Source: Holosporaceae bacterium (GTDB taxonomy: Bacteria; Pseudomonadota; Alphaproteobacteria; Holosporales; Hepatobacteraceae). From it: DNA of 64,000 nt. Below the pieces are notes generated by a model, which did not search any database, was not told where the DNA came from, and worked only from the letters and a program-made list of their open reading frames with translations. Numbering within the stretch: position 1 is the stretch's first letter; the number at the start of each line of letters is the position of its first letter. Below, one piece after another: positions 9,390-10,892 of the stretch. The stretch is taken from NCBI GenBank assembly GCA_036881885.1, contig JBAJNL010000001.1, positions 2,377 through 66,376 of the forward strand, written 5' to 3'. The translations under genes were made by a program, and so were the position numbers.

Positions 9390-10892
9390 TTGAAGGCAGA
9401 GCTCATAAAAAAGACTGTAACAGAGGCACTTTCTGGCCTGCGCGAAAAAGCATTTTCGGCGCAAGAGCTAACGCAAGCCTATCTGCAGGCTATTCACCAA
9501 AGTGACTTGAATGCTTTTTTATTTGTTGATGATGAAGGGGCGCTTGCGGCGGCAGCCGAAAGTGATAAACGCCTGGCCAAAGGTGAGGGTCGTGCTTTAG
9601 AAGGTCTTCCCATTGCAATTAAGGACAATATCGCAATCAAGGGGCAGCCTATGACGGCAGGCTCGAAAATGCTTGAAAACTTTGTGCCGCCTTATGATGC
9701 AACCGTTGTGCAGCGCCTTAAAGACAAGGGCGCTGTGTTGCTTGGCAAAACCAACATGGACGAGTTCGCCATGGGGTCATCCAACATGACCAGCTTTTTT
9801 GGGCCTGTAAAAAACCCTTGGCGCTCTAAAACAAACCCCAAGGTGCCTTTGGTGCCGGGTGGTTCATCTGGTGGCTCTGCGGCAGCAGTGGCGGCCTGTT
9901 TGGCACCCGCATCGCTTGGAAGCGACACGGGGGGATCTATTCGCCAACCAGCTTCTTTTTGTGTGCTTGTGGGGCTTACGCCGACCTAGGGTTTGGGGCC
10001 GCGCTGGGGCGTTGTGGCGTTGGCGTCCTCGTTTGATCAGGTGGGCCCTTTTGCCAAAACGGTTGAGGATGCCGCACTTTTGCTTGAGCATATGGGTGGG
10101 CACGATGTCAAAGAAGCCACATCTTCCTGCAAGCCTGTACCACCTTTAAGCCAGATCCTTCAGGCGACACCGAAAGGCAGTCTCAAGGGGCTGAAGGTGG
10201 GCATTCCCAAAGAATACACGGCGCCACAAATGGATGCTGATATTCAGCGCATGTGGGACGAGGGTGCGGCGTGGCTCAAAGCCGAAGGCGCCGAAATTGT
10301 GGCAATCTCGCTGCCGCACACAAAGTATGCGCTGCAAACATACACGGTGATTATGTTTGCCGAAGCTTCGTCAAACTTGGCCCGCTTTGATGGCGTGCGT
10401 TACGGCTTTCGTGCAACCTCGGAAAAGCTGCAAGAAGTCTATCAAAAAACCCGTGACGAGGGCTTTGGGGCCGAGGTAAAAAGGCGCATTTTGCTTGGAT
10501 CTTACATTCTCTCGCAGTCGTCTTATGAGGCATATTTTTGCAAGGCGCAAAAGGTCAGGCGATTGATCGCCAATGATTTTCAGCAGGCCTTTGATAAGGT
10601 TGATGTGGTGTTAACGCCCACAGCGCCTACAGGTGCCTTTGCGCTGGGTGATGTGCCCGATGATCCAACGGTGATGTATTTAAACGATGTCTTTACAGTG
10701 CCCATTAATTTGGCAGGTTTGCCAGCTGTGTCGGTGCCGGCGCGCCTCAGCCCTGATGGCCTGCCGCTGGGCTTGCAAGTGATTGGCCGCGCATTCGACG
10801 AGGTCACCATGCTCAAGGCCGCCCTTTGCTTAGAAAAAGCGGCTGCTTTTCCAAAGTTTGATCATTGTCACACAAGTGGAGCCGTTGCATGA
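9390..10892 (+). pseudogene. gatA: Asp/Glu-tRNA amidotransferase subunit A, interrupted by an in-frame TAG at 9987..9989
   Basis: ORFs 9330..9989 and 9993..10892 are in the same frame. Together they read as one GatA: amidase signature [13 protein letters not shown], then [39 protein letters not shown]. The stop replaces the Tyr of the conserved GLKPTYG motif. The likely start is the TTG at 9390. Confidence 0.7.

Follow-up and report, generated by a model that had tools for sequence, protein, structure and literature searches.

An in-frame TAG codon in gatA of a Holosporaceae-like MAG, probably an error of the assembled consensus

Locus, reading frame and need for gatA

The window, that is, the whole stretch of 64,000 nucleotides analysed here, lies on contig C1 of the MAG G000 of a Holosporaceae-like alphaproteobacterium with a small genome. 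This assembly amounts to 1,131,138 bp in 42 contigs, all of them longer than 10 kb, with a G+C content of 47.7%, and it is 83.3% complete and 0.09% contaminated. Its gatA gene occupies positions 9390..10892 on the forward strand and, with an internal stop codon read through, comprises 500 codons. It starts with a TTG at 9390, in agreement with the MK(A/T)(E/D)L start observed in 10 of 12 near relatives. The frame is interrupted by a TAG codon at 9987..9989 (forward strand), at a position where all other GatA proteins carry Tyr. A preliminary description of this DNA had read the two open reading frames on either side, 9330..9989 and 9993..10892, as one full-length GatA split by a single stop codon. 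This holds for the deposited sequence, as the codon is present and in frame, both reading frames lie in the same frame and their joint translation is GatA.

Comparison with TIGR00132 revealed a score of 568.3 bits for the protein with the TAG read through (cut-off 481.1), covering model positions 6-463 with one TAG inside. Each half alone stayed below the cut-off, the N-terminal piece (positions 6-181) with 230.9 bits and the C-terminal piece (187-463) with 319.9 bits. The read-through protein also matched GatA of Aquifex (3H0L) with an E value of 1.7e-141. A single uninterrupted frame is thus what the deposited gene lacks because of the TAG at 9987-9989, and this interruption is probably an artefact.

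GatA is the glutaminase subunit of the Asp-tRNA(Asn)/Glu-tRNA(Gln) amidotransferase GatCAB (TIGR00132; structures 3H0L, 4WJ3 and 2DF4). The residues K78 (in IAIKDN), S159 (GGSSGGS) and S183 (DTGGSIRQP) stand in invariant columns and are aligned with Aquifex GatA 3H0L, so that the amidase signature noted before is indeed present; presumably they represent the catalytic Lys, cis-Ser and Ser of the amidase triad. All three belong to the N-terminal piece. Directly downstream, gatB (10889..12409, forward strand) is intact with 694 bits, and its ATG at 10889 overlaps the gatA stop codon (10890-10892) as ATGA, in agreement with the coupling of both genes proposed previously. The tRNA-Asn gene that had been placed near gatA exists as tRNA-Asn(GTT) at 39188-39263, but it lies 29 kb away and is not adjacent. 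Upstream of gatA, the intergenic region 7386-7730 belongs to a dispersed repeat family, of which blastn found 143 pieces in G000 and 88 in the same-genus assembly G001, with 72-98% identity and in both orientations.

The preliminary description had recommended checking the genome for glnS, asnS and a second gatA. Neither synthetase gene was found above the cut-off in G000 (83.3% complete) or in five relatives of the family and order (94-98% complete). In G000 the search returned no more than two genes resembling GluRS and one resembling AspRS, and gatA is present as a single copy. As glnS and asnS are missing from G000 and from the five relatives, this lineage would depend on GatCAB alone to make Gln-tRNA and Asn-tRNA. 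Essentiality of GatCAB follows from the indirect aminoacylation pathway.

The gene for the third subunit, gatC, was not found in G000 (83% complete). In this family it is situated apart from gatAB, on another contig (G002:C1:44675-44884, L051; G003:C3:40781-40990, L050; G001:C2:43911-44126, L052), and nothing in G000 corresponds to the 3.2-kb region around gatC in the same-genus G001. Because gatC is unlinked from gatAB and its neighbourhood is missing as a whole, its absence probably reflects incompleteness of the assembly rather than loss of the gene. The 71% complete G001 assembly contains gatC and lacks both gatA and gatB, so that the two incomplete assemblies are complementary and G001 offered no orthologous gatA for the comparison.

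Conservation of gatA and substitutions close to the TAG

The 90% cluster of P0002 provided 12 near relatives of this GatA (94-98% amino acid identity; 35 contigs from ENA, Logan and NCBI), all of which are full length with 500-519 amino acids; the only named one among them bears the label Holosporaceae bacterium. The comparison with orthologous genes of close relatives, suggested earlier as a check, gave a uniform result: all 12 read FCGLVGLKPTYGL across the site, with Gly, Lys and Tyr kept. In an alignment of 29 class relatives, and likewise in the 12 near relatives, the Tyr replaced by the TAG is invariant, which confirms that the stop codon falls on a conserved Tyr; the near relatives carry TAT (9989 G>T). 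A search of 40 relatives yielded 35 full-length gatA genes above the cut-off, all 35 uninterrupted, and a stop codon inside the gene occurred in G000 only. Split GatA was found neither among 41 relatives nor within the 90% cluster. An exact look-up among about 15 billion proteins returned the truncated products of 199 and 292 amino acids from a single contig, the MAG's own 78,892-nt contig, and from no independent assembly. Around the TAG site, scanning JGI metagenomes for the exact pattern returned nothing, and a protein-guided scan of them reached at most 60% identity.

Parts of the stretch occur in 20 runs, which are coral and seawater metagenomes with no RNA run listed among them, and four of these were compared over positions 9000-11500. 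Run X1, a coral metagenome, contains the same strain, with 0 differences over 2,360 bases at a k-mer depth of 4-8, and it is the only run with the same strain at 100% identity. Contigs of X2 and X3 (study P2) and X4 (study P3), with 94-97% nucleotide identity, read G at 9964, A at 9979 and T at 9989. The resulting codons GGG (Gly), AAG (Lys) and TAT (Tyr) restore the conserved residue at each of these sites.

Two further codons of the window deviate just upstream of the stop codon. GTG (Val) at 9963..9965 (forward strand) stands where 40 of 41 GatA proteins have Gly and near relatives have GGG (9964 T>G), and ACG (Thr) at 9978..9980 (forward strand) stands where 38 of 41 have Lys, the rest Arg, and near relatives have AAG (9979 C>A). 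Together with the stop in place of Tyr at 9989, the replacements of Gly by Val at 9964 and of Lys by Thr at 9979 make up three changes unique to the window within 26 nucleotides, each of them at a near-invariant residue. The previous statement that everything else looks intact applies to the rest of gatA, which is conserved, but not to the Val and Thr codons, which precede the TAG by 8 and 3 codons.

A column counted as conserved if 90% or more of the 41 other GatA proteins shared its residue. From the 166 columns so defined, the window departs in four, all located in codons 9921-9989. One departure puts Ser in place of Thr, a variant that is allowed there, and the other three (Val, Thr and stop) lie within 9 codons; the probability of three random deviations this close is about 0.001. 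Outside codons 9921-9989, gatA contains no indels, no frameshifts and no scattered changes at conserved columns. Relaxed selection on a pseudogene would have scattered replacements over the conserved sites, shifted the frame or truncated the gene, a picture which gatA does not fit. As the deviations are confined to codons 9921-9989 and indels are absent, gatA does not look like a gene under relaxed selection, and the lesion goes back to one local event, whether genuine or an artefact.

Elsewhere in the gene, replacements unique to the window in comparison with the 12 near relatives are Phe for Ser (9522-9524), Cys for His/Asp (10128-10130) and Ser for Gly (10179-10181). These residues, F45, C247 and S264, fall in variable columns. 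Solid X1 contigs of the same strain contain them as well, and they appear to be true differences between strains.

Immediately behind the site, GatA residues 201-207 (9990-10010) read YGL[G/M]PRWG in this lineage versus YGR(C/V)SRxG in 28 of 29 more distant relatives. Leu takes the place of the Arg following the KPTYG motif in the window as well as in each of the 12 near relatives, and same-strain contigs back the GLGPRWG of the window, where GRCSRWG is usual. This replacement is a real clade-specific change beside the active-site region.

All three clustered changes are G/T or A/C transversions. At the nucleotide level, 40 of 163 places differing from the relatives were listed, and among the other differences at listed places this class accounts for about 10% (X2) to 21% (X3), most differences being transitions. 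In Illumina four-colour sequencing, one laser is common to A and C and the other to G and T, and G/T and A/C are the miscall class favoured there (PMC4381044, PMC3156955). The class of the changes gives soft support to miscalls, the platform of the source run not being on record.

Two other origins of the cluster were rejected. A template switch at a quasi-palindrome was not supported, as both sets of bases fold with practically the same energy (-40.8 versus -40.7 kcal/mol) and the sites lie in no repeat. A pair of compensating frameshifts around the TAG was discarded because the other two frames contain no GatA-like residues.

Same-strain cover and the origin of the TAG

The contigs of X1 stop at position 9811 and restart at 9990, leaving a cover gap at 9812..9989, so that the next contig begins one base past the G of the TAG. 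Logan contigs are built from 31-mers, and k-mers seen only once per run are dropped (PMC12424806). As single-count k-mers are dropped, none of the 31-mers across 9989 can have occurred more than once in X1, whichever base they carried there. A separate index gave X1 a word share of 0.85, the missing 31-mers making up about 15% of the query. Since this shortfall equals the size of the gap, the hole lies in the contigs themselves and does not stem from filtering in the comparison. A restart at exactly 9990 is the expectation if one or two reads over 9989 disagree there, and it would be a coincidence had cover simply resumed. The gap is nevertheless circumstantial evidence, as a stretch without cover proves nothing by itself, and it counts here only in combination with the contig start at 9990 and the word share of 0.85. 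The preliminary description had named TAT or TAC at this codon in the reads as the mark of a simple error; near-relative contigs do read TAT, but same-strain cover of the codon is missing, and the point is reached only indirectly.

With a probability of about 0.75, the TAG represents a consensus or base-calling error in a thinly covered stretch of the MAG, and of the four options offered earlier, the one of a sequencing or assembly error has the best support. According to this explanation, the real gatA would be intact and would carry GGG, AAG and TAT (Gly, Lys and Tyr) at 9964, 9979 and 9989, as do the near relatives. The assembler may have bridged about 9812-9989 where only one or two reads covered it, and because the bridge would rest on so few reads, three bases could have been miscalled within 26 nucleotides of the deposited consensus. 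On the basis of Logan contigs rather than raw reads, we infer that the three bases are miscalls and not a rare real allele. An error is favoured by the clustering of the changes, their uniqueness to one contig, the conserved rest of the gene, the intact genes of relatives, the lack of solid same-strain k-mers over the stretch, the use of TAG as a normal stop codon and the nature of gatA as an essential single-copy gene.

Several observations weigh against an error. The 79-kb contig cannot derive from X1 alone at a depth of 4-8, and the actual source run or co-assembly may cover 9812-9989 well. Three surviving miscalls in 26 nucleotides are unusual unless one low-quality read end was used. Moreover, the relatives carrying TAT are other strains (94-97% nucleotide identity) and not members of the same population.

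Alternatively, the TAG might be a real and very recent nonsense allele of the strain or of a sub-population, created by one multi-nucleotide mutation event which changed three bases in 26 nucleotides and left a new pseudogene or a deleterious variant. We regard this as unlikely, although the deposited sequence does carry the TAG and the strain has private changes, F45, C247 and S264, which solid X1 contigs confirm. Such an allele might be carried for a while if intact copies exist beside it in the symbiont cells or populations. A fixed allele at a k-mer depth of 4-8, however, should yield solid k-mers, and X1 has none; the allele is carried by no independent assembly, and its origin by template switching, with folds of -40.8 and -40.7 kcal/mol, is unsupported. 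The perfectly conserved rest of gatA bears no trace of relaxed selection, and the GatCAB pathway, apparently the sole route to Gln-tRNA and Asn-tRNA in the order, has no second gatA to rely on. The recent pseudogene proposed before hence fits poorly, with no decay elsewhere in an essential gene. With a real TAG, a marine coral-associated Holosporaceae-like symbiont would possess an essential translation enzyme that is either broken or made in an uncommon manner.

Same-frame stop codons with at least 120 open codons on either side were surveyed as junctions. Among 15 TAG junctions, a family spanning the stop codon was found in gatA only, and the other 14 separate two different genes each or involve frames without a Pfam match. 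The genes at these junctions include ClpB, YchF, MutL, phosphoglucomutase/LysR, CTP synthase/KdsA, TrcR/ABC, BON/RNase H, KpsF/LptC, HscB/HscA, AccC/DapB and RuvA/RuvB. At least 11 ordinary genes, clpB, ychF, mutL, pyrG, accC and ruvA among them, end with TAG, and no family spans any of the nine TGA junctions. None of the 39 tRNAs found in the 83% complete genome has a CUA anticodon. TAG is an ordinary terminator in G000, and the former judgement that a global reassignment is improbable was well founded.

It is very improbable that a real TAG is tolerated, either by read-through or suppression of UAG or by a working two-piece GatA of 199 and about 292-299 amino acids restarted at TTG 9993 or GTG 10014. 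Both halves are intact in one frame and gatB is still coupled by ATGA, and the genome has tRNA-Gln(CUG) and tRNA-Tyr(GUA), which might misread UAG with low efficiency, as near-cognate tRNAs are able to. Yet the lack of a CUA anticodon among the 39 tRNAs and the use of TAG to end at least 11 ordinary genes speak against suppression, and a read-through GatA would still contain Val and Thr for the near-invariant Gly and Lys; the read-through or suppression considered earlier gained no support. Re-initiation at TTG 9993, three nucleotides behind the stop codon, fares no better, as this TTG is an ordinary Leu codon in 12 of 12 near relatives, the only SD-like sequence, AGGG, lies 1 nt before it and is too close, and the residues aligned with the catalytic triad all lie in the N-terminal piece. 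Split GatA is likewise absent from the 41 relatives and the 90% cluster. A naturally split or read-through-dependent GatA would, if true, be new.

A genome-wide reassignment of TAG to an amino acid, for which the single gatA codon speaks and nothing further, is refuted within the 83% complete genome by the 14 of 15 TAG junctions without a spanning family and by the failure to find a CUA tRNA.

Comparison with known systems

Where an essential gene of a low-coverage MAG contains a lone nonsense codon, this should not be taken for genome decay, recoding or gene loss, and the TAG in gatA should not be used as support for ongoing pseudogenisation in G000.

The gene agrees with known GatA (TIGR00132) in its full-length match when read through, in the amidase-signature residues, which are in place, and in the gatB gene located directly downstream. 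It differs from them by the TAG at the invariant Tyr of KPTYG, by Val for Gly and by Thr for Lys, all found in this contig only.

Recent pseudogenes of reduced host-associated bacteria offer a second comparison, as the genome is Holosporaceae-like with about 1.1-1.3 Mb and a lone nonsense codon is the usual first lesion. Such pseudogenes arise in dispensable genes, whereas gatA apparently serves the sole route to Gln-tRNA and Asn-tRNA and exhibits no other sign of relaxed selection.

Consensus errors of low-coverage MAGs resemble the present case in several respects, namely an isolated defect in an essential and otherwise perfect gene, clustered substitutions of a miscall class, no solid same-strain k-mers and a variant absent from independent assemblies. 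In contrast to a typical single miscall, three errors occur in 26 nucleotides without an indel, which needs a poor read end as the sole evidence for the stretch. This gatA is likely a normal gene with an assembly artefact rather than a gene of a new kind or a case of recoding.
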